From Candidatus Omnitrophota bacterium (GTDB lineage Bacteria > Omnitrophota > Gorgyraeia > Tantalellales > Tantalellaceae): a DNA stretch of 51,956 nucleotides. Shown piece after piece: positions 11,201 through 51,955 of this stretch. The translations under genes were made by a program, and so were the position numbers. Positions within the stretch are counted from its first letter, which is position 1. Every line of letters begins with the position of its first letter. Where the stretch lies: positions 1-51,956 of the forward strand of contig JBDRBY010000055.1 in assembly GCA_043822245.1 (NCBI GenBank), in the 5' to 3' direction. The notes beneath the pieces are model-generated. The model was not told the origin of the DNA, did not search any database, and saw nothing but the letters and a program-made list of their open reading frames with translations.

Positions 11201-14200
11201 GGCTGACAGAAAAATAAGCGCGCCTGATAGCGGCAATATCTTTAGAATAAACGCCTTTCGGCTTGATGCGATTTTATATTTGGCTCCATACCCCTGGGCC
11301 ATGCCCAAAAACGTCTCTTTCGAATTATCTTTCATCTTTTCAGCTTTTTTATAATCAGAGAACGCTTTTTTGACTTCTTGATTCTCGCTTCTAATCTTCG
11401 CGCGGATAAGGCGCGCGCGTAAAACCAAGCTGTCGGTTATTTCCATTGGGATTCTACGTTTTTTTCTAAATGACAGGAATTTTCGTACGCGGGAATAATC
11501 CTGCCAGGTTAGGATTTTGTTGATGTTGTGTAAGATTGCTTCGGGCGCTTCGCGCCCTCGCAATGACACGGCGGGGGCAACTCCTTGCAATGACACGGAG
11601 AGTTCGGCGCGTAACACGTAGGATTCGGCGCGGTGAGGGGCAATGTCTTCCGCGATTTCCAGTGTTTCAAGAGCTTTTTTGAAATTTTCCAAGGCCTTAT
11701 ATTCGTCACGGTTTTCGCGTTCTTTCTCTCCTTTTTTCTTGTATGCTTCTGTAAGCGAAATGTACGCTTTGTAGAGCTTTAATGGATCAGAAAGTATCCT
11801 GTGAATGTCTATAATAAGCCTGTGCGATTCAAAATTAAAGGGGTCTTTTTCAATAGCCGCCCGCGCTTCTTTAAGGGCTTCGTCAAAATGTTTAAGATAA
11901 TGATGCGCTTTAGCAAGCTTGTAATGCGCAGTGCTGTTTTCTGGCGCGATTTCAATAGCTTCTTTGTATTTTGCTATTGCTCTGTGGAATTCCTTGAAAT
12001 CTGTTGTCTTTCTCGCCTTTTGCCAAATGGCATCTGCCTCGTCCATTAGCTCTTGTTCAGGGTGCCGCTCTGGATCATAGGTCTCTATTTCCACTGTCAT
12101 TCCCGCACCACCTGTCATTCCCGCGAAAGCGGGAATCTGTGATACCAAAAATAAACGCTTTTTCTTACCATTCATCTTATGCCACGCGTCACAATTTGCT
12201 TCTTTCATTGCCGATAATAACTCTGAAATGAACTCAGCCTTTGTTTTATTTTCTGGGGCGATCTTAGCTATAACATCTTTCAACGCGGAATCAATTTTAA
12301 TGTTGCTCAGTAATTCGAACTTTACCGTTATGCCAGTTATGCCAGTATTTTTACCGGACAAATCCACCCTATCCAAATGCCTGGCTTTTAAAATTTCGTA
12401 AACTGATTCCAAAACACTCAGTGCGTTTGTTAATAGAACGTGCTTTTCATTTTTCCAGGCTTCTTTTCCCTCCTTTGGTAACTTTTTCCAATCGTAAAAT
12501 ATTGACAAAGCATTGACTGCTTTGCCGCGGAAAAGAGTTTCAGCGTCTTGCATTTCCGCGATTTTGGGGAGTTTAAACACTTTTTGTAAAACTTCACGAA
12601 AGAACTTATCAAAACTTGGTAATTCTTTGTCTTTGCGGGTTGACAGGTTTAGTTGTTCATAGATAAGGTCAATGAAATCGGAAAGGGCAATTACGCGTAA
12701 AAGACGCGGCGTGGCAGTATCCGCATAAATCGTCAGCAAAAACCATGCCAATTTGGATGTTTTATTACTCTGTTTGTATTGATCCTGAATATATTCAAAG
12801 ACTTCAATGGCGGTAAACGATACTCTGCCAATGGTAACATTTTCTTGGTTACTATTTTGGAGAAACGTCCTCGTTATTATCAAAAGGCCAAAAGCGCTTT
12901 CCGCGAGCTCTAAACGAAGTTTTCTAAGCCGCTTTTCAAGTTCGTAACGCTTTTTTCTATTTGGCTCGGTATATTTTATTCTATTGAGCCGTTCATTGAT
13001 TATTTTTATAAGTTCGGGAAATCTGTCTGGGTTATGATATACATACGCGATTAACTTTTCTTTTGTATCTTTCAGAGTTTTTTGGCCCTCTTTTTTTGAC
13101 TCATCAGGTAATTCGATTGCGTCAAGGTATTTGTTTAAGGCGTTGTTTATTATAGATCCCGGGTCTCGGGCTTCGCCCTCGCCCGGGATGACAATCGAAG
13201 CAGCTTCGGCTGTTTCCGGGATGACAATCGGAGCGGCTTCGGCTGTTCCCGGGATGACAGGAGGGGTGAGGCCTTTTTTTCGATCGTTTTTCTTTTTTTC
13301 TGCTTTTTTGGTGTCTTTCTCCTGGTTTTCTAAAGATTTTTTTATTGTTTTTAATCTTTCTTGCTGTGCTTTTAAATTTGCTTCGATTTTATTTAGAGAT
13401 TCCCCTTTTTCCGATATTTCGCTTTTAGTTTTTTTGCCTTTTCTTGCTAATTCATCCCATTCGGTATTATACTCACTTCCGGCTTTTCGCATTTCATCTA
13501 TTCGTATTTCAGATGTCCGAAGTTCAATGCGGAACTCTTTAATTTCTTCTTCTAAATCTGATTTTTGTTTGTTAAGTTTATCGATGCGGTTTTCTATTTG
13601 CTTTTTCTCTTTTTCTATTCTCTGTTTAAGTTCATATTGCTTGGTATAATCCTGTAACGCGTCGATATAGTCGCTGACTAAGGCGTCCGCGTATTGTTTC
13701 CTTACTTCAGGGTCGTCCGGTTTTGCTTTAATTGTGTTTTCCAGAGATTTGATATAGGCTTCCCATGCCTTACCATGTTCAGTCACAACTGTCTGCTGGG
13801 GATGTAAAGCGATCCATTTATTTGCTTTTCCTGTGAATAATTCAGACTGGGCTGTATTTCCTACATTGGCATAAATCCTTGCTATGGCCTTATACGCGGT
13901 AATTATCCTGTTATTTAACGAAATTAGTCGTTCCACTGTGACTTTCACTTCAGGGTCTTCTACTTCTTCTTTAAAAAGCTCGATAATTTTTTCATATTCT
14001 TTTATGGTATCCTCTCCCTTTTCTTCCGCTTCAAATATCGCGGCCTGCAGTAGATACTCTTTGTATTCCCATTCTTTCGCGTCCCAGAGTTTTTGCTGGG
14101 CTTCTTTTTTACGGTTTTGTTTTAGGGGTTTTAGATGATCTTTATACAGATTAAGTACTGACATAGGTAAAACGATGTCCTTATCTTCTGTATAGGCGAT

Positions 14201-17200
14201 GCTTGAGAGAAGGTTTGTAATTGAGATAATGAGGTTTTCTTTGATGATTTTGTCTTTTTCTGTTGTTGGTGATGGCGCATTGATTTTTGACAGCATAGTC
14301 TCAGCAAAATCATGAATGACGTTAACTAATCGTATCTTTACGGAAAGGTCTAAGTTGTTAAGTAAGTTTGCGAATTTTTCTATATCTTCAAAACACCGGT
14401 TCAAAATAATTTCATCGATTATCTGTTTAATTATGCCGGTATCTTCTTTATAAATGGTTTCAATATTGAGGATCTCTCTGGTTTTCCCTAAAACATCCTT
14501 AAAACTAAACTGTGTTTCATCTTCTCCGATGTTTTCTTTAAGCTTGCCCATTATGTTAATAATAATTTTGGCAGACACGTTTTGCCCGCGTTGCAGTTCT
14601 TGTCTAAAAAGCCCGTTAAGTAATAGTTTCGATGTGTTTATTCTTACATCCCCTAAAATCTTTTTTATTATTCCGGCCCTTTCGTTTGTGTCTGAAAAAT
14701 ATCTTTCAATCACACTGATAATTTTTTCATAGTACAGTCCTTTGCTGTACAACGCTATCAGTTCTTCAAGTTGTTTAAAATCATTCATCTCGAATTTTTC
14801 TACCTTGTCTATTTCTTTGTCTAATCTTTTTAAAAGTGTTTGCTCCTCAAATAGAATTTTGAGTTTGAGGAGGAAGGTGTTATCGGGATCTATAGATTCC
14901 TGCGTTCGCAAATATTTAAGGCCTCCATCTATAAGAACCTTGTAATCAACCTTTGGATTGCTTATAAGTGTTTTAACAATTTTAAGCACTGCATCTTGAA
15001 TCTCGTCACTCTTATTATTTATAGAATCCTTAATTAAATCGTTTAAAAAGCCTTCCAGACTTTTGTTTATTCCTTGTACGCGTTTATTGTACTCATCGTC
15101 TGTTTCGTTAGCACGCCGGGCTAAGTGTGAGGGAATAGTCCTTTCCAGCCACTGGAGCCATATAAGGTCAATACAATTCTTTGTTTCGACATTTCCACTA
15201 AAAGAAAACCGGTGTTTAAATAATTCCCGGTTGAGTTTCAAATCCACCTCGAAAAAATTCACAAGAAGCGGCTGGATTATGTTCTTTATAATCATCTTTC
15301 GCGCGTCAGGCTTATCAACATCTTTTAGTTGGAAATTTAACTGTTTATTAATTAAACTTTTTAGAGTCTCTTTTAACTTGTCTAACTCTTCCATTTTTCC
15401 TCTGTTAGTTAATTCGTTTACTATTTTATTTAAACCTGATATTTTCATTCTATGCCGCGTCGTAGTCTTTTCCATGGACAATGTACCAATAAGCGCTGCT
15501 TTTAATCCTGCTAAAGATTTATCAATTTCTTCGTGTTTTTTGATCCAATCTAAATGGTTTCCAATAAATTTACGCCTCTTTGTTCTTGGCCACGGGGCGC
15601 GTACGTTATAATTTTTGCGCATAAAAAGCACGTCAAACAATTGATTCAGACTTTGAATCGCTGTTGACATTTCTTTTTTTAAACCATCTTTATCCTTAAG
15701 AAGATTCTCGATATCTTTTTCTACAGCTTCGATTAGTCCATGCAAATGCGCTTCTCTGCCCAATCGAATATGCTTCACAATAGTATTTTTTCTCAGTTTT
15801 ATTTCAATAAGATGCCGATGGATCTTATCTAAAAGATTTTTGTCATCATTACTGAGCGGATTTCGTTCGGTTTCGTTTATCAGATAGACCCTGCTTGAGT
15901 AACGCAATACCGGGCGCCTAAAAATCGTGTTAATCACGCTTGCTATAAAATTCGGGTCAGTGGTTAAATAGCGCCAGAAGCTCTTGAAGCGCGATTGTGG
16001 TGTTTTTTGTAAAAGAGCGTTTTGGGCTTTGTAGTAATAGAATTCAGCAAGATTTTTTTTGTCATCTTCGGGTGTTTTGAATTTTTCCTTATACAATTCG
16101 GCAAGGTCAAAATAGAGTTGCGCGGGGTTTTGTTTTTCTTTTTTCAGTTCTTCTTTTTTGTCAAGTATCTTTCGATCAATTGACTTTTCTCTTTTAGAGG
16201 TCTCTTTTGGCAAAGGAATTGGGGTAATCGCTTTAGGTGTGTCTTTGTCCAAGTCTTTTTCTGCTTCTTTTAGATTGTCCAACTCTTTTTGTGCTTCATC
16301 TTTATTTTGAGCAAGCTCTTTAGCTATTTTGGACAGTTTTTGCAGTTTCGCGGTGTTGAGTTTTTGTTCGAATTGCCATTCGAAGTATTTTTTTGTTATA
16401 GATCCCGGATATTCGCCTTCGGCGAATTCCGGGATGACAGTGGTGGTGACTTCGGTGCTCTCGCTCGGGATGACAGTGGTGGTGACTTCGGTGCTCTCGC
16501 TCGGGATGACAGTGGTGGTGACTTCGGTGCTCTCGCTCGGGATGACAGTGGTGGTGACTTCGGTGCTCTCGCTCGGGATGACAGTGGTGGTGCCTTCGGT
16601 GCTCTCGCTCGGGATGACAGTGGTGATGGCGACTTCGGATGTGATAGTAGGGACAGGCCCCTGTGCCTGTCCGATTTTCTTATACACATTTTTGAGCAAG
16701 TCTCGCCAATTATCCGGGCGGCTATCCGGTGGAATCGCGAGGAGCGCTTCAACGATGATAAACTGATCTTCCTCACTTTTCCCTTCGATTTTAAAATCTT
16801 CATCATCAAGCGAACCAAGGATAACGTTTATTTCTTCCTGGGACGCGCCATTAACCTTTAAAAATCGTAAAAGTGTAAACTGTATGTTAAGCCATTGCTT
16901 CTCATCTTTCCATTTTATCGTTAATATCCTCTTTTTATTACGTTCTGTATTGAATTTTGCGGCTATTTCTTCAGCCTTAGCAAGATGTTTCTTTTTATTC
17001 TCATTTTTCTCTGTTTCACACAAATCAAGATAATGCTGAATCAAGTTTGCATCGTTTTCAAAATTAGGAGGTTTGAAATATAGTTTGACGGCTCTTACCG
17101 AAAAATAGACAACGGCAAAACTAAGCACTAAATTTATTGAAATAAACGCGGGCGTAAAAAACGGATAATTCAGTATGAACGGTAAGACTGATAAAACTTT

Positions 17201-27919: not shown

Positions 27920-28033
27920 TACTTTTGACCCCTACGTTGACCCCACATTACTATTAAAGTATACCCTATTTTTCATCCTCAAGAGCGAGAAAAATCTACC
28001 TTTTTCATTTTTAACGTAGCCGCTTTTGTCTCT

Positions 28034-28438
28034 TCACATTATGTTAATTCCTGCTTGTCTAAATCCCTTATCAAAGGAAAATGCCATATCTATCCCTATA
28101 TCTTCCATTATGCAAAAACATGAAACATCTGTAAAACTAAATTGTTTATCACGATACTTTTGATAACATTCCCATGCCCTTTGAAAATAATCCGGAAAGA
28201 CGTTTACAATTTTAACTATTTTGCTCTCTAATATCGCCGTCCCAGCTAAAACCGATTCTCGGTGACTTCCGCGCACCATTATGGTTGTTATGGTTTCATC
28301 TACAACATAATCCGATGTATAAATTTGAATCTTGCCTCTTTTAATCTCGTTGTATAGGCGTACCGACTTTTCATTATTGATATCATTCCGTACAAAAAGC
28401 GCTACCCATCCGCTTGTGTCAACAAAAACGTTTTCCAT
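28034..28438 (-). CDS. vapC: VapC-family PIN-domain ribonuclease toxin
   Basis: VFVDTS, DYVVDET, SFTD and FSFDKGF acidic PIN motifs; 134 aa; AGGAG SD; directly downstream of a small RHH gene. Confidence 0.9.
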   Translation of the reverse strand: MENVFVDTSGWVALFVRNDINNEKSVRLYNEIKRGKIQIYTSDYVVDETITTIMVRGSHRESVLAGTAILESKIVKIVNVFPDYFQRAWECYQKYRDKQFSFTDVSCFCIMEDIGIDMAFSFDKGFRQAGINIM

Positions 28439-28453
28439 ATTTTTTTCTCCTCT

Positions 28454-28696
28454 CTACTCGTATAAGTAGCGATCATGCTTAACTGACGCATCATCAACAT
28501 TAAGCTTTATCTTACCGATTGCCTTAGACAGGACATCATTGTCCCAATTGACTTTCTTCTCTTTCAATTTTAGAAAACGGTCAATGGCATTTCGTATTAG
28601 CTCTGATACTGCTAAATGTTCCCTTATCGCTTCAAGTTTAAGCCTCTTGAGCTGTGCTTCTTCAATATAAACCTGAGTTCTGTGCAAACTGCTCAT
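28454..28696 (-). CDS. Ribbon-helix-helix (CopG-like) antitoxin, VapB-type
   Basis: HRTQVYI beta strand, then helices with SELIRNAIDRFL; 80 aa; AGGAGG SD; 15 bp upstream of the PIN gene. Confidence 0.85.
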   Translation of the reverse strand: MSSLHRTQVYIEEAQLKRLKLEAIREHLAVSELIRNAIDRFLKLKEKKVNWDNDVLSKAIGKIKLNVDDASVKHDRYLYE

Positions 28697-28740
28697 GATT
28701 TCCTCCTTTCAGTTTTTTCTTAAGAATTCCACACTCGCTT

Positions 28741-28781
28741 TATACATTATACACTATACACCATAACCCTTGCGTTGTCAA
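28741..28781 (-). promoter_or_regulatory. Sigma70 promoter of the TA operon with an overlapping putative operator
   Basis: TTGACA (28776-28781), 17-bp spacer, TATAGT (28753-28758). TATACA is repeated at 28741, 28748 and 28755. Confidence 0.75.
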
Positions 28782-28786
28782 GACTT

Positions 28787-28880
28787 GAATAATAGGGACA
28801 GCGACCTATTTTTCTTCCCTTCCTTAAACGAAAAAAATAGGTCGCTGTCCCTATTATTCCCTATTATTCCCTATTATTCC
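28787..28880. repeat. Perfect 27-bp inverted repeat (MITE-like or terminator) followed by a 10-bp tandem repeat
   Basis: GAATAATAGGGACAGCGACCTATTTTT (28787-28813) and its exact reverse complement (28833-28859) with a 19-nt loop; CCTATTATTC x3 at 28850, 28860 and 28870, abutting the giant-gene stop codon. Confidence 0.9.
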
Positions 28881-43800: not shown

Positions 43801-46800
43801 TTTCACCAGGTAAGCGGACTATATTTAACGCGCCTGTTGCTACTATCCCTGTGTTACCGATTCTGACAGAAAATTGTTCTGTCGCGGAATTCGCGCTTAT
43901 GGCGCCGGAGAAAAGGTCATTGCCTTTGGCGTCGTATAGAGTTACCTGCAGGCTTACATTGTTGTCAAGGCGGCCTGGGGTATGGATTCCCGCTTGCGCG
44001 GGAAGGACGAAGAGCGCGGGAAGGACGAAGGGGCGGGCATCGTCTCCTATGTAATTTGCTAATAACGCGTGAATTTCAGTCTCATTTGACAGAGTTGTTG
44101 TTTTTTTTATGTCTTTTCCAAAACTTGATAACTGAGATGATGCCTCTTCCAGCATCGTTTTGAAGTCGAGCGCGGCTAAACCTTCGCCCCATTCCACACG
44201 CGCTTCTACCTGCGCGATGTCCCCATTCGTATTTCTAAACATGCTTGGCTCTGTCACTAAATTCGGCGAAATGCTTCCCGTATAAATGTGTTCACCCGAT
44301 AGCGTATAAACGTTTGTTCTAATTTCCGTCCCCTGTTCAAGATTTTTAGCATAGTCTGACAGAAAATCCATAAACTGTTCTTTATTCGCGAAAGAAGCTT
44401 TCGCTACAGCGGTTTTAAAACTCGCTACTTCATGAGACGCGGCGCTAATCATTTCTGAATCCATGGTTATCGTAAACGCTCCAAGATGTGTCTTAACAAC
44501 TTCGATATTTACAATACAGTTCTTATCAAGATTCATACTGCTATCTCTTTTGCTTACGGCTGTTCTCTGCGAAACTCCTCTATCTAAAACTTTGCCGGCT
44601 GCGTCATACACGCTGATATCAATGCTTTCGCCAAGTATAAGCCTTGCGTTCTGAGCGGTTAAGAAGTCCTCTATCGTTTGCGCGCTCGTTAACTTCGCTT
44701 TAGCCGCGCTTTCTTTAAACACATTAGTAACCCATTCCAAGCGTTTTGCCATATCACCGCCGGCTTCGTCAGCAAGACGATTTACTGTTATACTCGCCGC
44801 GATTAGCGAGTGAGTGTCATGTTCTCTTACCGCGACGTCTTCTGTCATAGTGTTAGAAGTCAAAGAACCTGACATGAGCGAATCGCCTTTCGCGCCATAC
44901 ACTTCTATTCGCATAAACGTGTTATAGCCCAAACAAGCGTCCGCCCAGGAACTTAAAAAGTCCTTTCTTTCAGTGTCATCCGCGAAATTGACGCGTTTGG
45001 CTTTTACATCGCGTTCGAATTTCGCCTGAATCGTGTCCAACGCGTCTAACATCATATATATACTCACCGCTGAGTTATCGCTTCCGCGCGGTATAGTTAC
45101 CGGTGTATTTATAACATTTCCAAACTCGTCTTTAAACATTCTTGTGCCTGTCACAAAACTCGGCGAGATACTGCCTGTCCATTTATGCTCGCCGGACACC
45201 GTATCCACACTGATTCCCAATTCCATGCCGAAATTCGCGTTCGCGGCCATCCAGTCCGCTAAGTGCCGGTTTCTATTGTCAGCGTTTTCAAAGTTTAAAA
45301 AATCAGCGACTTTTGTCTTTCCTTTCAAAGACGCTTCAAATTCCGCTGATTTCATAAATAGCATACTAATTACCTGCTCGTTAGTTAACGCGGCGCTGTC
45401 TTCCATATTTCTGATTATTATCTCGTAATTCACTCTGCATCTTCCGATTGAATCCATTACTGAATTATTGATAGTGGCGCTTGTTGCGGCCAAACCTATT
45501 GTCCATAAATTCCTGCCATAGGCGTCTTGCGCGTTTATACGAATACTGGTTTGCATATCAAGTGAAGACTTTACACTTGTCAAAAAGATATTCCTGTCAT
45601 TTTCATTAAGGAATTTCGCTCGTTTTGCCAATGTCTCGAAATTAGACGCTGATAAAGACACTCTTTCCGCCATTTCACAGCCGTTTTCGTCGGACGTACG
45701 GCGGGTTGATGTTATACTGCCTGTTAGTAACGCGCCGTTATTCTCATTTCGTACCGTGAAGTTTTGCGTTATAGCGTTGTGTGAAACGCTTCCTGACCAT
45801 ACATAATCCCCGTTCGCGCGGTTATACGCGCTTAGCTGTATCGTCGCGTTATACTCAAGTCCCGTGTCCGCCAAAGAGCCTAAGAGGTTTGTTCTATCCT
45901 GTTCGTTCGCGAAATTGATTATGCCTTTTTCAAAATTCGCCTGCAGTCTTCCCGCCGCTTCCAGCATAACGTAATAGCTTAATTTAGCTTCGTCTTTACC
46001 CCGTGGCACAGCTACCTGGCTCATTCTCTCATTCTCAAACTTATCGTTTACCGGCCTTGTGTCAAGTAAAGATGCCGTAGTAATAGTGTATGAACCCTTA
46101 TACTTGCCTTCCCGGCTATACACATTTAGTATCAATTCAATATGAGAATTATCGTTATCTTTCATCCATTCAGCCAGAATCAGGTTTTTGATCTCTTCCG
46201 GTTCAAGATCAGTGAACCCGGGAAGCGCGGTTTTGCTTCTTAAAAATCCTTCAAAATTATCCGCTTTGAGAGACAGCATATCTATCGCCTGTTTGGGAGT
46301 TAATTCAGCGCCTTCCGCCAGGTCATTGATACTAAGCCGGTAATTTAGGTTACAGGTTCCGACAGAAACCATGGCCGAAACATTAGTATTCGAATTATCC
46401 GATGTTAAACCTTTTGTCCATAAATAATTTCCCTGCTTGTCATACGCGCTTATGCTAAGAGCGGTGTTTATATCAAGATTTGTTTTTACATCAGCCAAAA
46501 AGCGGCCGCTTTCCGTTTTATCAAGCAGGTTAACTCCCGCGGCTTTTGCTTTTACATCAGTTGATAATTGATGTAGGCGTTCTACCATTGCCTTGCCGCC
46601 CGCGCCGGGCAAACGGCTTTCAGAGTATTGAGACATTAATGTCACACCGCCCTCTTGTATGACACAATTCTCCGTAATGTTGTTTGAAGAAATGTTTCCT
46701 TGCCATACGTAGCCGCCTTTTGTATCGAAAACTTCACTATGGATCAGGATATTACCTTTTATTTGTGACGCGTTCCAATCCGGCGACAGGAAAAGCTCTC

Positions 46801-49800
46801 GGTTCGCTCCAAAGAAAGGCAGAGCGCTCGCGGGATCCTCGCCGATCCAAGATGCTGAAATCTTGTCCCATGATTCGCGGCTCGTAGCGGTTTCTGTGGC
46901 GGGCTTAAAATTTTTAAAGTCTGTTTCACGCGATACCGCCTCGAGAAATGCCTTCTCCATCATTTGTTCAAAACTTTCGCCAGGTTCACGAGTTTTGCTC
47001 ACCGTGTCGTTAGATAGTAACCCTGCTTCAGCGTTCGTTGCCGAATACATTATGGTCACATTTCTCAAAGAAGCGGTTATCTCTTTTCCCTCTAAAAGCC
47101 CTCTTACAAAAACATTTCCGGCGTCGTAATTAGTCTCGCTTCTTAAACTTTCTAACATACTTTTCGCGTCAAGAGAGTCACTAAACAAATTTGTTGTACA
47201 CACACCTGTCTTTTTACCTTCAACGTTATAACCAAATACCGCGCCATAACCTTTAAATGAACCGTTTAGGGTTATATCTGCCGGTAATAGGCCTGTGTCT
47301 TTTTGAATATTTTCGCGTGCCTCGTCAACTTCATGCTCCTCGGTAACCGCGCCGATAAAAAACGTGCCATAAAATTTATTTGTCTCGGTATTTACACTGT
47401 AAGAAGCTTTATGGCCTCCTATGCTTGTCAAAACTGAAATATTCCCAACCATTTTTCCCGTACGATTGCTAAAGAAATTGATAAGGTTGTCAACGTCTTC
47501 TTTTGTTGCCCAATCATTTTTGTCTTCAATATTCAGCGTAAGCAGTTTGTTACTAAGCCCGAATTGGCCCTTTATGCCGTACAAAGTTGCTATAAGGTAC
47601 ACCTGACTCGGCGCGAGTCCAAATTTTGCTGAAATATCTGTTCTTTTCTGCTCCAACTCCTCTGTATTTTTAACATAACCGACATCAATATTCGAAATGC
47701 TGACAGGCTCGCTGAGAAGCTTTTCACCGTCAAACTTAAACGTAAAATTCCCTTTTTCTCCTTTAAACATTCCGGATACGCTCACATAACCTGACGCGGC
47801 CATTTGCATGGCTGTTGTCAAAATCGTCATTTCAGCTCCGGCAACTTTATCTTTTATAGTGTCCATTACACCTTGAACCTTATCTAATGATACGCCGGAT
47901 AATCTTTTCTGAAGACTATTTAACGCGGCTTTGTTAAGACTGCCATCTTCGTCAAACACGGCGTTCGTCGAAGCCGAAGAATTCGCGCGCGCCTGCATGC
48001 CGAGCGAAGCAAGCAGAACACCGATATCCAGGTTACCGCACTTAATGCCTAAGGTTTTATTAAAATACTTGGTAAAATTATTCAAACCTTCGCTTTCCTC
48101 GCCTATTGATTTGAACATATTATCGAGCACAGTTGTATCTTCTTTTTCTTTCGCGCTTTGAATAAGGCTCGCGAGCCCTGTCAGCGTGTCTATGCCGGTA
48201 GTGCCTCTCGATTTTATTATGTCCCCAATTGCTGATTTCATATCACCGCAGTTTGACTTTGTAATCAGATTCATGGCTATAAGCATACGGGAGGCGGTAT
48301 TTTCTTCGTCATTTGACATAAGGGCAGACACCAACGCGTCAAAACGCATAATCTTAGCGCAATATTCAAGCGCAGGTAATAGTTTTACCGGATCGGTTTC
48401 CGCTTTCAAAGTGTTTTCCGAAGCTAATACGGCAAAAATATCATTCCTATTTTCTTTTTCCGCGAATTTACGGACAACTTCCATAAACGTTGGGTTCGGG
48501 CCGAGAGAGCCGAATAAAGACGGGAGCATGCCGTTTTTTGATAGAATGTCAGTAAATTTGTCGCCCGCTTTTTCTCCTTTTGATAATTTTATAAACACAG
48601 GCGCGGCTCTTGCCCATATTTCGACCTCGCCGTCCTGGCCCATCCTTATAGCGTCTAATAACGCGTTATTTAGAACCTTGTCTTTTATAACAGTCATTTT
48701 GCCGTCCAAAATAATACCGGTTGAAGAATCGCCTAATGATTTTGCGTTTAGTTTGGTTCCGCCGATTTTTTGGGATTTACCGGAGGCTTTGAATTCGTCG
48801 GTGACTATAACAATTTGATTTTCGGCGTCAAATAGGCTGTTGTTTTGGATGGTGATGTCTCCGGTCATGAAATCTTCGTCAATTTTAAACACCATTGTTT
48901 TGCCGGCGCTGTCAGCTCCGGCTCCGGGAGACGCGGAACCGCCAACGTTGTTTATGATATAAGTGCCTGAGCTCAGGTGAACTTCAGCTTTGGCATTGGC
49001 AATGTTGAGAGCGCCTTTTTTGAATTCAATGATTCCGCCTTTTTGTATTTTTATCCATTCATCTGTTCCCCTACTTGTTAAGGATAGATCATCTTTGAGT
49101 TTTTCGCCGAAAAGGCCTAAAGAGAGCTCTACCGTGCCGGTTAATTCAAATTTCTGTTTACCTCCTTTTAAACGCACGGTTATCGCGTTATTGCTATCCG
49201 CTGTCAATAACGCGGTAACTTCGCCGGTATTATTATTCATGCTCACGTTTTCATACCCATTATCCCGCCAGTATTTTATTATTTCATTTGCGGGCCTGTA
49301 GCCGCTCTTTGCCGAGAACGGCCATATGAGCGCGCCGTTTTTATTAACTTCACATATCACATATGGACGCGTGCTATCTCTAAAAAACGCGAGTTTTCCC
49401 ACAAGGGTTTCTTCTGTGCCATCAATAAAGACATCGAACATGCGCTCTTCCGCGCCATATACAGGTTTTATATAGACAATATCTTGTGGATTAATCCCCA
49501 ATTGTTTTCGTACTGAGTCAGTGAACCAGGCCTCGAGTTTCGCGTTGCCTTGGACGGAGAAGCGGGAGATTGCTTCGGCCGCTTCGGGGCGGGTGGCGGG
49601 CGCCATTACCAGTGTTGGGGTTGTTAAGGGTTGGGGCGCAAGAGAGCTGTCAATCGATATTCCATAGTCCACAGTTTGTGGCGAATCTTGTTGGCCTACA
49701 TACTCAGCTCCTTGGAAATCGGTTACAATTACCGGGCTCCAATAAGGCATCGTAGGGCTCCAGAAAGATTGAGACGCGAGTGAAATGGGCGGCGCGTATA

Positions 49801-51955
49801 GTGAAAATGGGTTTTCACGCGAGAAGACCATTGAACCATCCGGCAGGATAGAAGCTACGCCTGGGCCGCCTTGTTCCCATAAAATGTTTTCAAGATAAAA
49901 TGACGTTTTGTTTTCGTAGTCGTGGGATAACATGTCCTGGCTTTTGTCCCAGCTAAGTTGGCCTATATAGTAGCAACCACACTTATTAGAGATGTATGTG
50001 GCAAAATCTTCTAATGAAACGGCTTCGCTATTTTCAAACACGGCATTGTCAAACCATGAATATTTTCCGTCTTTTTTAAACGCGCAAATCGCGTGGTCTT
50101 CCTGCGCGGTACGTACTACTAATATCACCGGTTCATATCCCAACTGCTGCAGGGTGATATAATTTCGAAACGCAAACCCTTCACAGTCGTCTTCGATTGG
50201 CCCTGTTGTCTTAAACATCCATCTGTCCCATCCCTCGGGATCTGGTACGTATTTACTATTTCCCAACACCCAGCCTATGTACTCTTCGAGAGAGTAGAAA
50301 CCGGCGCCGGTTATGCTATCGGCGCGGTTTTGGTATGGATCGAGAGAGGAGATTGCTTCGGCCGCTTCGTGGCCTCGCAATGACACAGGAGTGGGGCTTT
50401 GCAATGATGCGGGGGTAGTGGGGGCGGCGGAGTATTTATAGTTGATGCCGTCGGTGCTGGTGAAGGGGATTAGGTCTATGTCTATTATAGATTCCTGCTT
50501 TCGCAGGAATGACAAAGAAGGCAAGGATGCCATTAACGCGTCCCTATCGTCTTCGGTGATGTTCAAGAGTTCGCAGATGGCATTGAAATTTTTAACTAAC
50601 GCTTTCGCGTCGATTTTGAGTGTTATTGTTATGGTTACACTGAGCAGGTTTTCCTCATTTAGGTGATAATTCAGGGCAATTGTGTAATTATCTTTGCCTA
50701 TTAGTTTATTCAATTCGCCTGAAGTCTTTAAAAGCGGTTTTAATATTTCGTTAATCTTTGTGAGTTTTTCTTTAAGATTTTTGATGTCAGTCTCATCCCC
50801 TGCTGTTTTTTGGAACAGAGCGTCTATGACAGCCTGAGTCATCTCGGGGCATACCTCGACAGTGTATGACCTGAGAAGAGACTTATATTCGTTTATTACG
50901 GCAATTGTCTTCGCCTTATCCGCGGAAGAATCAACTAAAGCCTCCAGAATCACTGACGCCGAAGCGACAGCCATTGCTTTTTTCGTCTGGTCAAAATTCT
51001 GTGCCATTCGTATCATATTCAGGGCGGCATCAAGGCAGTTGGCGTTTTCCAGCATCTTGCCCGCGTCAATTGTATTGTCGTTTTCCATGGCTGTTACTAA
51101 ACTCGAAACCACTCTTGCCATGTTTACCATATTCGCCAAGATCACGTCCTGTCCGCCTTTTTTCGCGGTAATTTTCGCGATATTGTCAGCGCCGCCAAGC
51201 TCCGACATCGCGGAAAGAGAACACGTAATAAGCTTTAAAATCTCGTCTTTCTTGTCGCCGAACTTGTCAAGATTTTCCACGAGAGCTGTATTTACGTCAC
51301 CTCGTTCCTGAAGCGCGGCTAAAATAATTTCCGCTGGTTTACCGGTTTCAGACACGTTCAATATATTCGCCACGTTATCCGCGGTTAAAAAGTCATTCTG
51401 GGATAGGACAACACTCTCTAGCATATCCATCGCGCGTTTTGTGAATGAATCCACGCCGAATTTCGCGTCAGCGGCGGTTATTTTGTCAAATCCTTCAATT
51501 AACGAGCGGACAGCATCACTGCGGCCCGAAAAAACCGTTTTAATAAAATCAACTATCGCGCTTTCATCTATACCTTCTGAAAACAGCAAACTCACATTAT
51601 CCACGGTTAGGACGGCATTCATAGTCGTAAAAGAATTCTCAAGCATCTTCATCGCGCGATCCGCGAACTGGTATCCTGCCTCTACAAAGTTGCTAAAATT
51701 TACCATTATTGATTTTGCCATTACACACAAACTGTTGAACGCGGCTTGTATAACCTCGAGGCCACCTTCGGCCCCAAGCAGATCTTTTATGCTCTCAATC
51801 GTCAAAAGACGGCTAACCGTGTCAAACGAATTCTCTATCAGTTTCATCGCCCTATCCGCGAACTTTCCGAAATTCTTGAAGTTTACCGCGAGTGAATCCA
51901 CCATTTTGCATAAACTGTTGAACGCGGCTTGTATAACCTCGAGGCCGCCTTCGGT
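28880..51955 (-). CDS. Giant membrane protein of more than 7,690 aa (5'-truncated by the window): helical repeats, transglutaminase-like domain, ~310-aa super-repeats, glycine-zipper/TM block, degenerate SecA-like ATPase, JAB-like domain
   Basis: The frame stays open from 51904 to the window edge (TEGGLEVIQAAFNSLCK-M), so ATG 51904 is internal. Motifs: DDCEGFA..HA..FDN (about 50020-50300), ECSEGKT and GFDEIEQTL (about 33500-35370), EVGG..YHTHP (about 30680-30920). Confidence 0.9.
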   Translation of the reverse strand, partial: TEGGLEVIQAAFNSLCKMVDSLAVNFKNFGKFADRAMKLIENSFDTVSRLLTIESIKDLLGAEGGLEVIQAAFNSLCVMAKSIMVNFSNFVEAGYQFADRAMKMLENSFTTMNAVLTVDNVSLLFSEGIDESAIVDFIKTVFSGRSDAVRSLIEGFDKITAADAKFGVDSFTKRAMDMLESVVLSQNDFLTADNVANILNVSETGKPAEIILAALQERGDVNTALVENLDKFGDKKDEILKLITCSLSAMSELGGADNIAKITAKKGGQDVILANMVNMARVVSSLVTAMENDNTIDAGKMLENANCLDAALNMIRMAQNFDQTKKAMAVASASVILEALVDSSADKAKTIAVINEYKSLLRSYTVEVCPEMTQAVIDALFQKTAGDETDIKNLKEKLTKINEILKPLLKTSGELNKLIGKDNYTIALNYHLNEENLLSVTITITLKIDAKALVKNFNAICELLNITEDDRDALMASLPSLSFLRKQESIIDIDLIPFTSTDGINYKYSAAPTTPASLQSPTPVSLRGHEAAEAISSLDPYQNRADSITGAGFYSLEEYIGWVLGNSKYVPDPEGWDRWMFKTTGPIEDDCEGFAFRNYITLQQLGYEPVILVVRTAQEDHAICAFKKDGKYSWFDNAVFENSEAVSLEDFATYISNKCGCYYIGQLSWDKSQDMLSHDYENKTSFYLENILWEQGGPGVASILPDGSMVFSRENPFSLYAPPISLASQSFWSPTMPYWSPVIVTDFQGAEYVGQQDSPQTVDYGISIDSSLAPQPLTTPTLVMAPATRPEAAEAISRFSVQGNAKLEAWFTDSVRKQLGINPQDIVYIKPVYGAEERMFDVFIDGTEETLVGKLAFFRDSTRPYVICEVNKNGALIWPFSAKSGYRPANEIIKYWRDNGYENVSMNNNTGEVTALLTADSNNAITVRLKGGKQKFELTGTVELSLGLFGEKLKDDLSLTSRGTDEWIKIQKGGIIEFKKGALNIANAKAEVHLSSGTYIINNVGGSASPGAGADSAGKTMVFKIDEDFMTGDITIQNNSLFDAENQIVIVTDEFKASGKSQKIGGTKLNAKSLGDSSTGIILDGKMTVIKDKVLNNALLDAIRMGQDGEVEIWARAAPVFIKLSKGEKAGDKFTDILSKNGMLPSLFGSLGPNPTFMEVVRKFAEKENRNDIFAVLASENTLKAETDPVKLLPALEYCAKIMRFDALVSALMSNDEENTASRMLIAMNLITKSNCGDMKSAIGDIIKSRGTTGIDTLTGLASLIQSAKEKEDTTVLDNMFKSIGEESEGLNNFTKYFNKTLGIKCGNLDIGVLLASLGMQARANSSASTNAVFDEDGSLNKAALNSLQKRLSGVSLDKVQGVMDTIKDKVAGAEMTILTTAMQMAASGYVSVSGMFKGEKGNFTFKFDGEKLLSEPVSISNIDVGYVKNTEELEQKRTDISAKFGLAPSQVYLIATLYGIKGQFGLSNKLLTLNIEDKNDWATKEDVDNLINFFSNRTGKMVGNISVLTSIGGHKASYSVNTETNKFYGTFFIGAVTEEHEVDEARENIQKDTGLLPADITLNGSFKGYGAVFGYNVEGKKTGVCTTNLFSDSLDAKSMLESLRSETNYDAGNVFVRGLLEGKEITASLRNVTIMYSATNAEAGLLSNDTVSKTREPGESFEQMMEKAFLEAVSRETDFKNFKPATETATSRESWDKISASWIGEDPASALPFFGANRELFLSPDWNASQIKGNILIHSEVFDTKGGYVWQGNISSNNITENCVIQEGGVTLMSQYSESRLPGAGGKAMVERLHQLSTDVKAKAAGVNLLDKTESGRFLADVKTNLDINTALSISAYDKQGNYLWTKGLTSDNSNTNVSAMVSVGTCNLNYRLSINDLAEGAELTPKQAIDMLSLKADNFEGFLRSKTALPGFTDLEPEEIKNLILAEWMKDNDNSHIELILNVYSREGKYKGSYTITTASLLDTRPVNDKFENERMSQVAVPRGKDEAKLSYYVMLEAAGRLQANFEKGIINFANEQDRTNLLGSLADTGLEYNATIQLSAYNRANGDYVWSGSVSHNAITQNFTVRNENNGALLTGSITSTRRTSDENGCEMAERVSLSASNFETLAKRAKFLNENDRNIFLTSVKSSLDMQTSIRINAQDAYGRNLWTIGLAATSATINNSVMDSIGRCRVNYEIIIRNMEDSAALTNEQVISMLFMKSAEFEASLKGKTKVADFLNFENADNRNRHLADWMAANANFGMELGISVDTVSGEHKWTGSISPSFVTGTRMFKDEFGNVINTPVTIPRGSDNSAVSIYMMLDALDTIQAKFERDVKAKRVNFADDTERKDFLSSWADACLGYNTFMRIEVYGAKGDSLMSGSLTSNTMTEDVAVREHDTHSLIAASITVNRLADEAGGDMAKRLEWVTNVFKESAAKAKLTSAQTIEDFLTAQNARLILGESIDISVYDAAGKVLDRGVSQRTAVSKRDSSMNLDKNCIVNIEVVKTHLGAFTITMDSEMISAASHEVASFKTAVAKASFANKEQFMDFLSDYAKNLEQGTEIRTNVYTLSGEHIYTGSISPNLVTEPSMFRNTNGDIAQVEARVEWGEGLAALDFKTMLEEASSQLSSFGKDIKKTTTLSNETEIHALLANYIGDDARPFVLPALFVLPAQAGIHTPGRLDNNVSLQVTLYDAKGNDLFSGAISANSATEQFSVRIGNTGIVATGALNIVRLPGETGLQMIERMSLKAEGFRQRVENVNLLDENARNIFLAKEYSLLGANAELDINAYGAKGNHLWTVSLAGKTVSKNTKVMDSLKFCEVNYQIVVRKGEDGAALSDLKMIEKVFLNSASFESAVKKTADFSTIITRNYFLADWAKQNLDAYTELRGSAFMLSGEHRWTGSISTSRVTEIATIKDASANVMRVNASVQRGVGSVQLGYLKMLVSAAFNLEEFRKDVNIGKDFSNKQEWHNLLADWVGDDIFSASLSQYGWLGPSFSTSRLSSNITLEVNMRDCNGNDLWQGTIASHGLSQNFSLRDKKTGFTLTGQINVSRLPGETGDLLVSRLSSLESVIPATSSVIPASSSVIPAEAGIHALAACITNLGPNASIDISAYNDKGKHLWDVSLSKENISLVKSVMDKQKQTITTYEITVPSGHGDAILTPIQMVNEVFTKSTAFGREISAVSNFGTRKESDDILADWMNTRLAFGTEIDISVSGIDNSFKWNRRVSANAVTERRTTVNLNNGNIVRFQTTAVRDTDGLTSKEMLEQTFRQAQQFMAVISSVLSANAEDYNKNLYTLLASLIGDDSFVTDGIKPKIASNVTIQANIETKTGGYVWSGSMSAGHLTENYFVRDQGTGITAQGYIAVSRMQGETGINLADRLAKTTDKLTNEINPQKLSVTHNLITFMNEKSSAFGKYTDFAIVLTDFTGRTIEDVTINSQFMTLKIIAQDMNGNFAFSTARVDLKSGYRRTIDMNGMAGALFDMSEVFKNIAKLSDLSTIGNCADFMSQFESLFDYSDNVFSVQTEFNLANGDKGLFRVGTNTRLTRFVAQISKDGTLVQGWISCNMDGQMSVMPNSELFKSMVQEAEFSNPEEWMNFMKQFEYNEYNPEAFFTIQASFNKGPVTEHFSVNRPGEVETRVSWENEKGIRASGWVSVTDAASLRASLEIFKATFMESEINDAAFLEGFLFTEGGYLTGGKLNFMFEDYGGSFLMNAHIDGKKIGNTSNVTTIAAYDKYNELIGREVTISRLHNGDFPLLSSVIPAKAGIQPQPDTDGYYHGTTKHDRNGKLTHMQGVIACPAENGTFMGALVVTQWTEADKKGTFIRSDGFELDKKFIQRLDVHERQIDFTLIEDKDKTNAGFTTFKLELDKEAGGFIGLNGAIVTSQYEPRNISLLAMVKDAGAVANSGLYALENGTMVFSGRVEGSLRQDKRPDILTEGVSGSGSGGMPLITKERDFAIKAQTGDVYLIDGHIEYKNSQSLAFAPGDDSGANVIRCECDAEINGLLFKKGAKVGIDKDGALRASNVEAETAYLLRKGSSLRRFGDLQFAFGQGEDRIKFKYMPSMKSEGHKEFRAVDGTEARYLFTTTTNEGMTVVASSNWTKMKNGQLKNTTLNYVWLERDMDDITIGEGRNYANRLKLSYDKGKYVINGVIQAADIAVREPATIKHDPKAAAMAGASGEKPKEAKTNLNITGISENGKVFRLQGTWEIIDSDFRVCRPGAQLNNLTDTVITFYRTPVAADFSLRFNENGEPYPWNPKQKAKVTAGSLMYEDIKTEKGTIAKVVSGAALGGVAGSMFVPFYGTILGMIIGACTVGLDLWFNTEAKMPQWLATPGQKFRSVILSEAKNLSSSSKESVPTVSLRGGAEVADEAIPATSKHTSTVENLIQGIGNWYSTISGRLYGNTAIGATSGAVLGSIFIPLPGVGTAIGALAGGIIGLTVGILDVSGIGGFALRGIGKGLSAVWNKAEVWKWAKYYFGESAIGRLQFAVEALSVSEIVRNWDTIKSRASKMFTKFTQSSAGIFFSDMAEDVGVFAGKTWNGFKGFIKNSWIGDFAADVSNKISTLHEATRLYPGIEVPVYGNYTDKDGNQVWQIVETIRIDPATGRETGAAQEAKYWAESRSQGVGISGVKMPVYFAANFAESIMDMASTGRNEKFFANVKKAFVDDLIGHGIVGSFAGTGRVMINNDTGDWIKGKLYAKGITDQGALATIGTWTSMGTTAGTLIGLPCGGFPGLVIGGLAGFGTGLIIAAETLLFYNRQNKNLEYYIYEFSSTHKLQDAMAKGDDKFLFELSNVAAVVISVTSFGLSNLGGAFRVHGSSVLKTRLGSDGFLYKYTYEDVIGLATALTYAGFAGFSSSSSFSQAAVKKGLALGIGIYTTGAISQTIFTNKRFEETFTTSEAMLWGLRGAAVGMVMGGIIPGGLAQLKTSAGLARFMGTGAIWASANAGVYAAQAAFTGAKFDDKAFAAKIILGFGEGLAFHAIFSTMFHAVGSPFGNLIKSAIGKGIGWTSRIVIVAASTATFYTVGYIKANGKMTTRETINSLARGAIWGVAIAYALSPTGIEHLTGSAYNAAAKEKASLLLVEKYNVTNMLDVMFKYNAVAQASIVGAKRWVFISPMFTVFGALLDGTISAVMGQGFHFQLKQRGADGNVNLKQPINWTTGWGIIATSALSGVTKGLWMGPLVSIFAHPAKDASGNLLTLDAVSERVAAQVLVPNAASTAGLSVIQEKFFQIVHGAAFIWQEMEMVITVTGINRTLEAFAKHENIAKTGFSRWEVGLLSWVFLFIKPASWSISYHINNSLQNWAKDNVIENTINKLVSVTETKFVKNEIDKIQNNDTIAEVVKTEKIGLVKALAIRTLAQALKIDNKIVDMALDRAGISAYGKTFSMMFADSSGPTAEFKDPVIVMAEKQRTPFNNVLDVESKQIHDIAQAVFKEFLAKIGNQPEGFLQDMKNVAEKALNKLILEFNEDSSIGNRINDLKTVIVALNQGISGHGEPLAQQAETARTIANNGRDDITITHNNRLIEICVEVMLQINNDHHKSTGTEYFYPSKLQTEALVSAVHQQLINIGSAKGDAGNAAILLECSEGKTWVDITQFEVLDKYLIEAGKIDSKTTNTIKYLLLLPGPELVTQFVDPKDNQAYNTVENYFKGRGLDIFSTLLEQNLTANKSGLYVMETSEALKLFHKNPALFNKFIYVGFDEIEQTLQMPALVIANHEDIQALYNSADKAMMSYVNAIYNLFRTFVESQKDLKQDGSTIDRDLPSLRLQYFKGPLENLISEFLTKNENESFMKILGNSAAQELLYAFAGPRGIGVYLGQFDGASGNPEIKFETDKNSAKIFKNYGLSDTAGHNLESMKFKDPISAMAVLLHAAIIDGAKVTESDIYGNFSVSSQKGVSISDVLTYLNTHNYWHSFGVTNIITGLGATAEGCREMLKQLNFRVYDLGASDKIKMQDIVLVQGEGAVKKVVENAKDSFMTDKINGSAFNDAHKGNIHIFPTSAESYAHEVGNWLNEMCHDQKGEPNTGYKGLHTYSDIEGFKSFLKSVANEVQSYGILVFTNPNDLSDALNIAIKENMLNAWGRIMHVVGPLVTGSNIAKCVDDLVNPAFVKDTEFTRFQVTAVGNLTSSGAIQQACRWSTSVEHPSQTGLMVTRRLPAKITTVCDTEKLLCTFDERGELHSKMNGKKVVSGKLGDGDVIDKAWEYMERHNDMIDRQRSQETVRIVWESASDFNFGMTPDNVFMADPSLNFVKSSESKNEEMIYSNEHLNYKERRIFLAAFDMDETMQSFAEVSNNKLLTGGELHKAREIIQNLTNKKSEDGYKWNTSVIGDLMALSNAIQGQSLMVQNMVLSLFNDTISLVDFNMLSGVCNIFGEEKILYLMRKAGVEKTMSPIAFIRQNYARDGAMNVIMESAPKDVRETFIKTVSKITPTKTKMSNMSETLFGSTETDTKVVELFAACMRGEKYKVAEKTKFEEADIPMFEASARLVGLRGMETARLIFNSGEIGKTYVERKYDKKVVDYFDLLSSAESIRKTGEVKKKDKDHALDVSEVKAIRTAAKITAITAGIAGIGITAFAVITGAVLSAFGIGAVCAAVAGVAYKAGKRFGETIIGFKSGEEVAYSTGWTHEKFSELDADAKVRVIVHESLPKWLAHGIANIGLLTLASNTITRFVGKMILGEEMFNALCIVCDRGDAINRVSTIAQKTESGLFLAEKKRAFNFIVTNYIDVLVSSIDQKEFDAANTNEVFEKINTLSALVDKSAIQGKTLHITVKHEAKDHKIDWNLTDNVITIDNGLVAASFSAPSVIARSLSEAKGTKRSLMSDIMQKMANVNVSSDVSYDAFNAALMKHAFENGYTLHSTRIVAGSENVRVELRTDIRENTLKITNLDSGFSEIVTKADTSLVKAYDLQGVITAVARVKKVGAKSYDNRDPEILKIIEQNVREDLWSQSKELAEKVPDNMVREIVEARFDGSKGIIRDNMDFVVNNERGEQIGVIHGNEYSGDQLIAVMVEKFGISNNMVSEMTKDFKGILPYEVGGTILRQEDGTFEYRQSIRAVLKISDTGEILSMGETDIVKRSDKVVFQYHTHPHITTDVREYLADILAFVEKAEFVGSELDVMAPMRIYERGEKEQTVGETKLLFARKSADGTIAPVLLRLNPESGKFENVAEFDAMFGNVDLGSMIRRAQTAVVPSVMPGVVSDGQLITLSLGGKEATVSLIPFGNNTAELTVNHILYEKKKAAALVPEQAVVRGDEIRTRVPAEKILIGDTLLLRQITVFYEQILGFISSFINELQTEKDGKALIISLEDKDVPETLKKLLSEITDVEIQLPVVDRAIWQILNRSEVPADYYGTSEEFFTIDKVVLVRTEAGKFEIRVPALAKQDFNTKILTLSDKFDIMDADIDTLIKVVVKAVMYEKQGFMLSPETKKIIAQAIDRVGQVHVIAGMDNAMLFLEPQRALVVVQDIMDAKRLLETGFQQIDKVTNLLERAAQAGGTVLRLLKDGNLLLAGSDIRVLPASFINKDTQGYKTFVKQMHMINNGAVRRREKARIKILVAGSKRDIRSIKVLLPVEYQKTVEFTSFGKVTEKINGMYSAMSRTTGEVRITGIVQNENSLLAKLLINSNMRVRIIVARTFNEAMLMTVSSIAIEKRGWFTPLAVERLRNAMEKVQKSSVNGNTTVTSIPGAASEEANSRIDEYLFGDLEAETAF
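31547..31592 (-). repeat. In-frame nested element (family C core inside a family B stem)
   Basis: AGATCGCTTCGTCC-CCTTCGCTTCGCTCAGG-CTCCTCGCAATGACA; translated VIARSLSEAKGTKRS. Confidence 0.8.
38887..38986 (-). repeat. Pair of in-frame elements (family B 38887-38928; family C 38961-38986)
   Basis: GGATTGCTTCGTCGG..CTCCTCGCAATGACA and AGATTCTTCGCTTCGCTCAGAATGAC; translated VILSEAKNL..VSLRGGAEVADEAI. Confidence 0.85.
40704..40730 (-). repeat. In-frame family A element
   Basis: TGGATTCCCGCTTTCGCGGGAATGACA; translated VIPAKAGIQ. Confidence 0.9.
42732..42802 (-). repeat. In-frame family A element plus two 21-bp arm duplications
   Basis: CGCGGGAATGACAGA at 42746, 42767 and 42788; translated SVIPATSSVIPASSSVIPAEAGIH. 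Confidence 0.9.
43983..44030 (-). repeat. In-frame family A element plus 18-bp arm duplication
   Basis: GCGCGGGAAGGACGAAG at 43996 and 44014; translated FVLPALFVLPAQAGIH. Confidence 0.85.
49565..49586 (-). repeat. Half family B element, identical to 50348-50369
   Basis: GGAGATTGCTTCGGCCGCTTCG; translated EAAEAIS. Confidence 0.8.
50348..50532 (-). repeat. Cluster: family B element (50350-50385) and family A element (50489-50514), each with a degenerate arm duplication
   Basis: GCAATGA at 50377 and 50401 (24 bp). AGATTCCTGCTTTCGCAGGAATGACA with GCAGGAATGACA at 50503 and GCAAGGATGCCA at 50521 (18 bp). Confidence 0.8.

Follow-up and report, generated by a model that had tools for sequence, protein, structure and literature searches.

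Arrays of the tag-side arm beside TGTC/CGTC-tagged hairpins in a Candidatus Omnitrophota genome

Hairpins that carry a short tag, the repetitive extragenic palindromes (REPs), are among the commonest repeats of bacteria. For those tagged CGTC or TGTC, we know of no transposase and of no established way of moving. Such elements have been grouped into families CGTC-1 to -4, which include dRS3 of Neisseria and RPE-4 and RPE-6 of Rickettsia, and already in print, in the available part of that text, are the hairpin family itself, its in-gene copies and the tandem reiteration of whole REPs with flanking DNA (Di Nocera, De Gregorio, Rocco 2013, PMC3733652). Here, we describe tagged hairpins in contig JBDRBY010000055.1 (assembly GCA_043822245.1) of a Candidatus Omnitrophota bacterium, a stretch of 51,956 nucleotides hereafter called the window, where a single arm of the hairpin, together with its flank, is repeated in short arrays. 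These arrays lie on the tag side of the hairpin, their unit is mostly about as long as the hairpin, and inside genes their periods are multiples of three (3n). The window is the whole of contig C55 in a genome of 1.64 Mb, 82 contigs and 41% G+C. It was compared with the other contigs of this genome, likewise labeled C, and with 53 other genomes of the same family (54 with the genome under study), labeled G; relatives share no more than 70% identity with the study genome on a helicase.

A tagged hairpin family with one-sided arrays

The elements share one design, an AT-starting, AT-ending stem with GAC(A/G) directly after it, and a left flank that usually ends in AG, often as TATAG. Among 161 hairpins the tag is GACA (TGTC on the other strand) in 115 and GACG (CGTC) in 26, while the non-tag flank, read on the tag strand, is mostly CTA(TA), with AG before the stem in 90/161 and GG in 13/161. 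The commonest form is 20 nt long, with an 8-bp stem and a 4-nt loop that reads TTNC in 40 of 43 copies (GNAA on the strand with TGTC 5′ of the stem); the others are compound hairpins of 23-47 nt. The published elements have a short unpaired tail at the end away from the tag, with consensus CCA (Di Nocera et al., 2013, PMC3733652), and a CCA tail is found in many copies of the relatives. An 8-9-bp AT-starting stem with a 4-5-nt loop holds for the 20-23-nt class only, and the 30-47-nt copies, which retain the AT start and the tag on compound stems, go beyond the published description. The flank after GACA is purine-rich to about position +14, even in copies that have no array. In the window, GGAATGAC occurs nine times against 1.46 expected, a count that 0/100 shuffles reach. 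Because the unpaired tag, stem, loop, in-gene copies and absence of a linked transposase match the CGTC/TGTC superfamily, the hairpins are of a known kind; by their sequence, they are TGTC/CGTC-tagged REP-type hairpins that appear to have inserted, in frame, into tolerant parts of real genes, among them the two giant ones of the window.

What sets these hairpins apart is the array. On 99 clear elements genome-wide, the 10-mer at each junction of the hairpin was searched for within 8-60 nt, with at most two mismatches and with a control for each. The arm/tag 10-mer recurs downstream in 29/99 elements, of which two with period 8 were dropped as spurious to leave 27, and upstream of the hairpin in 0/99. 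The 10-mer of the other junction recurs upstream in 1/99, and its own control also gives 1/99. Tag side and other side thus stand at 27 to 1 (binomial p = 2e-7), and perfect runs of at least 12 nt at 22 to 0. The same asymmetry extends to the relatives, where the tag-side pattern of the 20-nt hairpin has 66 matches in 12 of the 53 other genomes (some overlapping, and about 14 of them tandem whole hairpins) and that of the 34-nt class has 32 matches in 7 other genomes; the mirror pattern of the 20-nt hairpin gives 0 matches in 54 genomes, and that of the 34-nt class likewise 0. Of the array-bearing elements, 17 lie in one GC-skew orientation and 10 in the other; with respect to the host open reading frame (ORF), 10 are in the opposite sense and 9 in the same. 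Since both orientations have the array on the tag side, the side follows the element, not replication or transcription, and the direction of either process is rejected as its cause. Strand stability is rejected too, as the mean difference between strands is 0.2 kcal/mol (DNA folding parameters) and points in the wrong direction. An earlier note on this DNA had claimed duplication on the tag side only, by a directional process tied to the element, and had called for side and period to be tabulated genome-wide; the counts above agree with it on both points, and the two sides are far from equal.

The length of the repeated unit also tracks that of the hairpin. Period and hairpin length agree within 4 nt in 22/27 arrays, which 0/100,000 shuffles reach. 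Hairpins of 20-23 nt have periods of 18 (twelve arrays), 19 and 21 (two), while 34-nt hairpins have periods of 33 (five), 36 and 25 (Fisher p = 5.9e-6). Within the 34-nt class the unit boundaries compensate one another, with 6-19 nt kept from the hairpin and 30-14 nt from the flank for a sum of 33 (five arrays) or 36. The rule recurs in relatives of other genera, where hairpins of 31-38 nt have periods of 31-42, within 4 nt of hairpin length in 29/32 (7 genomes, periods of 18-48 allowed, hand-counted), and 20-nt hairpins have single-step periods of 15-23 (12-49 allowed), where single-step means units without a second 5′ arm and gaps over a diverged middle copy are left out.

In form, an array is (A-B)n-A. 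Part A takes in the end of the tag-side arm (6 nt or more), then GACA and some further nucleotides, and part B is a short spacer. All 27 arrays stop partway through a unit, 25 of them with 0.3-0.9 of a unit over and two with 0.1. At one extreme, in G045, the unit is almost the whole hairpin with its first few letters replaced by the tag, while at the opposite extreme only 6 nt of the arm remain. Sequence variants of a hairpin recur in its own repeated arm, as with GGAAGGAC at 43996 and with the AGGGAT, GGAGGAT and GCAAT types on C80, C81 and at 11535 of the window, which means that the copying is local. One locus in two species of a single genus, L060 (G038:C135) and L049 (G039:C3), differs by one 17-nt unit. 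Both species have a tandem pair of whole hairpins there (period 44-45), after which one has two 17-nt half units and the other has a single one.

Tagged hairpins were also seen in other settings. The tag strand of the 99 clear elements lies on the C-rich, anti-gene strand in 66 and on the other in 33; GC skew and gene-strand bias are themselves linked (Spearman 0.85, 41 contigs of at least 15 kb), and the preference for the C-rich strand is 2:1. Inverted pairs of tagged hairpins 30-50 nt apart, which resemble REP dimers, lie at C45 21892-21970, C76 35882-35940 and C1 20851-20920. A repeat of at least 80 nt, with one 20-nt tagged hairpin and conserved flanks on both sides, has six copies (C27 ~9995, C40 ~22869 and ~39580, C66 ~148 and ~13767, C76 ~35007), several of them near contig ends; it is perhaps one end of a larger mobile element, or else a promoter region that has been repeated. 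The genome holds a separate GTAG-type REP family as well, with 26 arrays of 32-165-nt period (C20, C12, C44, C74, C77, C82 and others). On C20, one Y1 transposase gene sits among GTAG-type hairpins, and ORF 9084-9776, of the RAYT-like (REP-associated tyrosine transposase-like) Y1 kind, holds three GTAG-type copies that encode a thrice-repeated peptide.

Arrays within giant open reading frames

According to the ORF list, the minus strand of the window is mostly filled by two open frames of 7557 and 7674 codons. These frames and the tagged hairpins of the window are as follows, in order of position.

5246..27919, minus strand: giant ORF1, 7557 amino acids, host of eight hairpin/array sites.
6219..6256, plus strand: 35-nt tagged hairpin; no array.
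7738..7763, plus strand: 23-nt tagged hairpin; no array.
11535-11564, plus strand: 30-nt hairpin with tag GAC; array 11556-11598, period 27, 1.6 copies; gap against the orthologue in G003.
12117-12136, minus strand: flipped 20-nt hairpin, tag at 12114-12116; array 12094-12124, period 18, 1.7 copies, to the left on the plus strand, which is the tag side.
13156-13189, plus strand: 34-nt hairpin; array 13182-13259, period 33, 2.3-2.4 copies; gap against the orthologue.
16402-16435, plus strand: 34-nt hairpin; array 16430-16625, period 36, 5.4 copies, 99% identity, with a diverged last unit to 16647.
19019..19051, minus strand: 30-nt tagged hairpin, flipped; no array; 8-residue gap against the orthologue.
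24833..24864, plus strand: 29-nt hairpin, 13-bp stem, GACG tag; left flank not the usual AG; no array.
25833-25862, plus strand: 30-nt hairpin whose own tag is AAC; second arm-plus-tag copy at 25883-25897, 30 nt downstream, 13/15 letters alike.
From 26623, plus strand: 38-nt hairpin (20-nt type plus 18 loop nt); array 26655-26686, period 18, 1.8 copies; partial gap against the orthologue.
28880..51904, minus strand: giant ORF2, 7674 amino acids, host of the sites at 40707, 42735, 43986, 50352 and 50491.
40707..40729, plus strand: 20-nt tagged hairpin; no clear array.
42735-42754, plus strand: 20-nt hairpin; array 42746-42802, period 21, 2.7 copies.
From 43986, plus strand: 20-nt hairpin whose 3′ arm ends in AAG; array 43996-44030, period 18, 1.9 copies, 17/18 letters alike.
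50352-50381, plus strand: 30-nt hairpin; doubtful second copy 24 nt downstream, site to 50410, 10/15 letters alike.
50491-50510, plus strand: 20-nt hairpin; doubtful second copy 18 nt downstream, site to 50534, 9/14 letters alike.

Eight of the ten arrays that the earlier note had listed in the window are clearly present. The remaining two, at 50377 and 50503, have three mismatches each in the 10-mer test and are at background level, as 19/99 elements score so downstream and 14/99 in the upstream control. Two details that the note had singled out hold as described, namely that the flipped element at 12117-12136 has its array to the left, on its own tag side, and that both copies at 43996 carry the identical GGAAGGAC variant. 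A small hairpin with TTCG as its loop is preserved inside each unit of the array 13182-13259, and the array 16430-16625 encodes VIPSESTEVTTT repeats. The 38-nt hairpin at 26623-26660 is one of four 20-nt hairpins with 18 extra loop nucleotides, the others being C4 12525-12562, C81 48140-48177 and C82 10209-10246; in three of these four, the extra nucleotides form a small hairpin of their own, which points to nested insertion into loops.

For the reading frame, the in-gene status of an array was set by true start codons and not by stop-to-stop frames. On this basis, the arrays on C68, on C4 and at C82-34453 (of the 27), along with one array from Tandem Repeats Finder (TRF) on C73, count as outside genes, all being upstream of start codons, and that on C31 is ambiguous. 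The 15 arrays that lie well inside genes all have 3n periods, of 18 (nine arrays), 21 (two), 24, 27, 33 and 36, and the 11 outside genes have periods of 18 (four), 33 (four, one of which goes on in 32-nt units), 19, 25 and 34. In the relatives, periods are 3n in 10/10 arrays within long frames against 13/28 outside, where they include 15, 17 and 19-23. Pooled, this gives 25/25 in genes against 21/39 outside (Fisher p = 2.6e-5), and the in-gene arrays leave frames of 400 to 7,500 codons open. The other TRF arrays in ORFs of at least 300 amino acids are 3n in 52/93; many of these are two imperfect 9-15-nt copies, and they were not used as a null. Selection removes frame-breaking arrays, a conclusion that the pooled counts support well and that matches what the earlier note had proposed, both for the 3n periods within genes and for the filtering of the outcome by frame. 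The point of its comparison with intergenic arrays holds, although the two that it had used, at 1-272 and 28848, are not of the tagged family: non-3n periods between genes are real (19, 25, 34 and 32/33), and arrays outside genes are not confined to 3n.

Of these two comparators, the 28-bp array at 1-272 is one of about 50 perfect tandem arrays genome-wide that form a family of their own, with periods of mostly 27-32 and with units that consist of a different small C-rich/G-rich hairpin and a locus-specific spacer. Others of this family are C58 6132-6341, C54 16783-17415 and C76 31115-31414, and because many are at contig ends, they probably break the assembly. The second lies in window 28780-28880, where an untagged hairpin with a 26-bp stem comes right after the ORF2 stop and 3.3 tandem copies of the final 10 nt of one arm occupy 28848-28880; it looks like a terminator with a reiterated arm end.

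Giant genes have already been described for Omnitrophota, in two preprints whose available text never uses the words "palindrome" or "hairpin". Residues 3-7557 of ORF1 align with an 8305-residue open frame of G003, which is of another genus, at 25-56% identity, and a Pfam search of ORF1 finds TPR and a weak SecA_DEAD match and nothing else. Judged from this orthologue, which is evidence independent of the arrays, ORF1 is a real, conserved gene. Where ORF1 has its hairpins and arrays, the alignment to the orthologue shows gaps or unaligned stretches, the array sites being in poorly conserved parts, and the 16402 site falls between one block ending at residue 3749 and the next starting at 3832. 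No tagged hairpin is present in the 76 kb of G003 examined, which includes the orthologue. Together, the gaps and the hairpin-free 76 kb show that the hairpins are lineage-specific inserts that preserved the frame. At the DNA level, 30 relatives match the 1.5 kb around 16402 over the hairpin alone, and no ancestral states are readable there. For ORF2, one 800-residue piece used as a query found no orthologue in the 53 family genomes, only internal paralogues. The earlier note had argued that the giant ORFs are really translated; that the frame is a real gene is supported for ORF1 by its orthologue, and ORF2 stays without one on that single query. Several internal paralogous segments of ORF2, of 130-300 residues and 27-38% identity (window 41546-46939), imply that it owes part of its length to old internal duplications.

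How the arrays may be founded

The reading that we prefer, and hold tentatively, is that replication slips back by about one hairpin length and that the tag makes this back-slip one-sided. The founding event would be tied to replication. While the strand that reads hairpin-then-GACA is being made, the new hairpin would fold out and the growing end would re-engage about one hairpin length back, whereby the stretch from inside the hairpin to 4-30 nt beyond the tag would be copied twice. Ordinary slipped-strand gain and loss would then alter the copy number, and arrays that break the frame would be lost by selection. A tag-linked cause, either the tag sequence or a factor that binds it, would restrict the process to one of the two strands. 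The compensating boundaries of the 34-nt class would follow exactly from a shift by one hairpin length. We infer both the back-slip and the cause of the strand asymmetry; the later change of copy number by ordinary slippage is well supported.

Several observations sit badly with this back-slip. Strict one-sidedness is not predicted by plain slippage, since both new strands pass through the hairpin and a symmetric hairpin should duplicate both sides, and it is the other strand that folds more stably in 61 elements against 20. By eye, the unit boundaries have little or no short homology. Five of the 27 arrays break the length rule, with hairpin/period values of 38/18, 40/18, 38/24, 46/34 and 34/25. 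Arrays of fewer than two copies number 15, all with 1.5-1.9 copies and none with 2.0, and their second copy matches the arm, the tag and a few nucleotides only; in the absence of clean two-copy arrays, a clean duplication would need later divergence of the spacer with arm and tag kept. Finally, the share of identical 20-nt hairpins that bear arrays is 30/73 in three genomes against 1/48 in three others, and although these genome groups were picked after the data were seen, the uneven share is a hint of some lineage-specific factor. No simple model on its own fits, and of the nick and the slippage that the earlier note had suggested, neither explains everything. Other candidates were set aside on their predictions. 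Ligation of a hairpin-protected flap, like a nick and displacement with rejoining at the hairpin foot, would duplicate the whole hairpin in register; cruciform cutting with fill-in would give a centered duplication; a purine triplex of tail and stem fails for the 34-nt class; and loss of one arm from tandem whole-hairpin dimers leaves the compensating boundaries unexplained.

An enzyme directed by the tag is possible but rather doubtful. A strand-specific nuclease or transposase, for which a RAYT-like Y1 (HUH) protein or another REP enzyme is the candidate, would recognize the hairpin with its tag and nick beside it, and after short resynthesis the displaced strand would be rejoined with one unit added 3′ of the nick. 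Such an enzyme would account for the strict one-sidedness that tracks the tag in both orientations and for the arm end and GACA core kept in every unit, and it would need no short homology at unit boundaries. It does not predict a hairpin-long unit or compensating boundaries. The genome has seven Y1_Tnp matches in intact frames of 162-239 amino acids, one of them with 72.8 bits on the REP-associated tyrosine transposase model, under its cut-off of 80, yet 0/7 of these genes are flanked by tagged hairpins within 1.5 kb; matches to the tag within that distance number one or two at three genes (one of them inside the ORF) and none at four. The published CGTC repeats are not associated with transposase genes in the available part of their description either (Di Nocera et al., 2013, PMC3733652). 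An array share that varies between genomes with the same hairpin, and an identical 18-nt unit at two loci, on contigs C45 and C56, are in line with an enzyme, but Y1 genes are present in 48/54 family genomes and their presence therefore does not separate genomes with and without arrays.

The architecture may instead have been inherited, which we consider unlikely. Here, a composite mobile unit of hairpin, spacer and half hairpin would have spread whole, slippage would alter only its copy number, and one-sidedness and period would reflect a few founding events. A near-identical 21-nt unit does follow the hairpin at about 10 loci of G034, one unit of G017 recurs on at least seven contigs, a purine-rich spacer pattern is common to 12 loci of G044, and the purine-rich flank after GACA exists even without arrays; G017, it should be said, is fragmented, with 8% contamination, and its repeated contigs may not be independent. 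Tag-side arrays are found in at least seven stem subfamilies, each with a repeated arm that matches its own hairpin, and many independent founding events on the same side would thus be needed. In addition, the spacers of the study genome vary by locus, as do the boundaries of the 34-nt class while its period stays at 33-36. It is far less probable still that the hairpin is irrelevant and that the arrays result from generic slippage in tolerant linkers of low complexity, into which the hairpins happen to land as well. The poorly conserved ORF1 stretches that hold the array sites would suit this, and 3n periods are expected for any coding repeat, but the arm end and tag are always in the unit, the sides stand at 27 to 1, the period tracks hairpin length, and the same structures occur outside genes and in 12 plus 7 other genomes. 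We give almost no credence to arrays made or mis-sized by short-read assemblers. The study genome is metagenome-assembled. Parts of 15900-17100 turned up in three public runs in one search, and public contigs from four runs all end at the edge of the 16430 array (16439-16442), none bridging it, such that they carry no information on its copy number or heterogeneity and the 5.4 copies are unverified. Most arrays, on the other hand, are under 60 nt and well within a read, the same architecture is present in 20 independent assemblies, and the in-gene arrays keep their frames open.

Significance and comparison with known systems

The side preference and the hairpin-long unit are two quantitative rules that any mechanism for CGTC/TGTC-tagged REPs must explain. 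The arrays also show selfish hairpins adding peptide repeats of 6-12 residues to real proteins, some of more than 7,000 residues, and the contrast between 3n-only periods in genes and mixed periods outside offers a sequence-only check of frame selection on doubtful long ORFs. It is conceivable, if rather doubtful, that a strand-specific machine recognizes the tag and, on that side of the hairpin, copies DNA in steps of about one hairpin length, with the arrays as its footprint. If true, this would give a first handle on the multiplication of a widespread repeat superfamily, and in Omnitrophota the machine would also be an internal source of in-frame peptide repeats for giant proteins.

The closest described relatives are the CGTC-tagged REPs (Di Nocera et al., 2013, PMC3733652). 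Both groups have an unpaired tag at one stem end, often TGTC, stems of 8-9 bp that start with complementary A-T, loops of 4-5 nt, in-gene copies that add residues, and no linked transposase gene. They differ in that longer, compound hairpins of 30-47 nt make up many of the present copies, that Omnitrophota is not among the five phyla given for CGTC repeats in the available text, and that grouped elements are rare there, with arrays of the tag-side arm alone not described in that text, from which the strings "duplicat", "half" and "slippage" are absent. Likewise, in the available part of the REP and palindromic-element literature, supplements aside, we found no description of one-sided tag-side-arm arrays or of a hairpin-length period.

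The GTAG-tagged REP clusters, bacterial interspersed mosaic elements (BIMEs) and REPINs resemble this family in being high-copy tagged hairpins in a genome with RAYT-like genes. In those systems, though, whole hairpins or dimers are repeated, while the units of the present family are without the other arm and are confined to one side; the mobile unit there is an inverted doublet of REPs, and some inverted pairs are seen here (C45 21892/21945, C76 35882/35916); the tag is TGTC/CGTC and not GTAG, and the RAYT-like genes are not flanked by tagged hairpins as in REP/REPIN-RAYT systems. The Rickettsia palindromic elements, which Ogata and colleagues reportedly described in 2000 as lying in frame in protein genes at about 100-150 bp, with no one-sided arrays said to be reported, are likewise selfish palindromic DNA that is tolerated in ORFs and adds peptide segments. 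Coding minisatellites that change by slipped-strand events share the head-to-tail units, the copy number that varies between relatives and the 3n in-gene periods, but not a side preference and unit length that depend on a neighboring hairpin. Y1 genes are present here, as in single-strand transposition of the IS200/IS605 type, in which a Y1 transposase cuts at fixed sites that the end hairpins determine and whose elements have two different ends where those described here have a single hairpin. Polar arrays are built by enzymes elsewhere, as in the duplication of CRISPR repeats at the leader end and the insertion of integron cassettes at folded attC sites. By analogy, the arrays beside the tagged hairpins grow on one side as those do, in units of 15-40 nt and without acquired spacers or cassettes.

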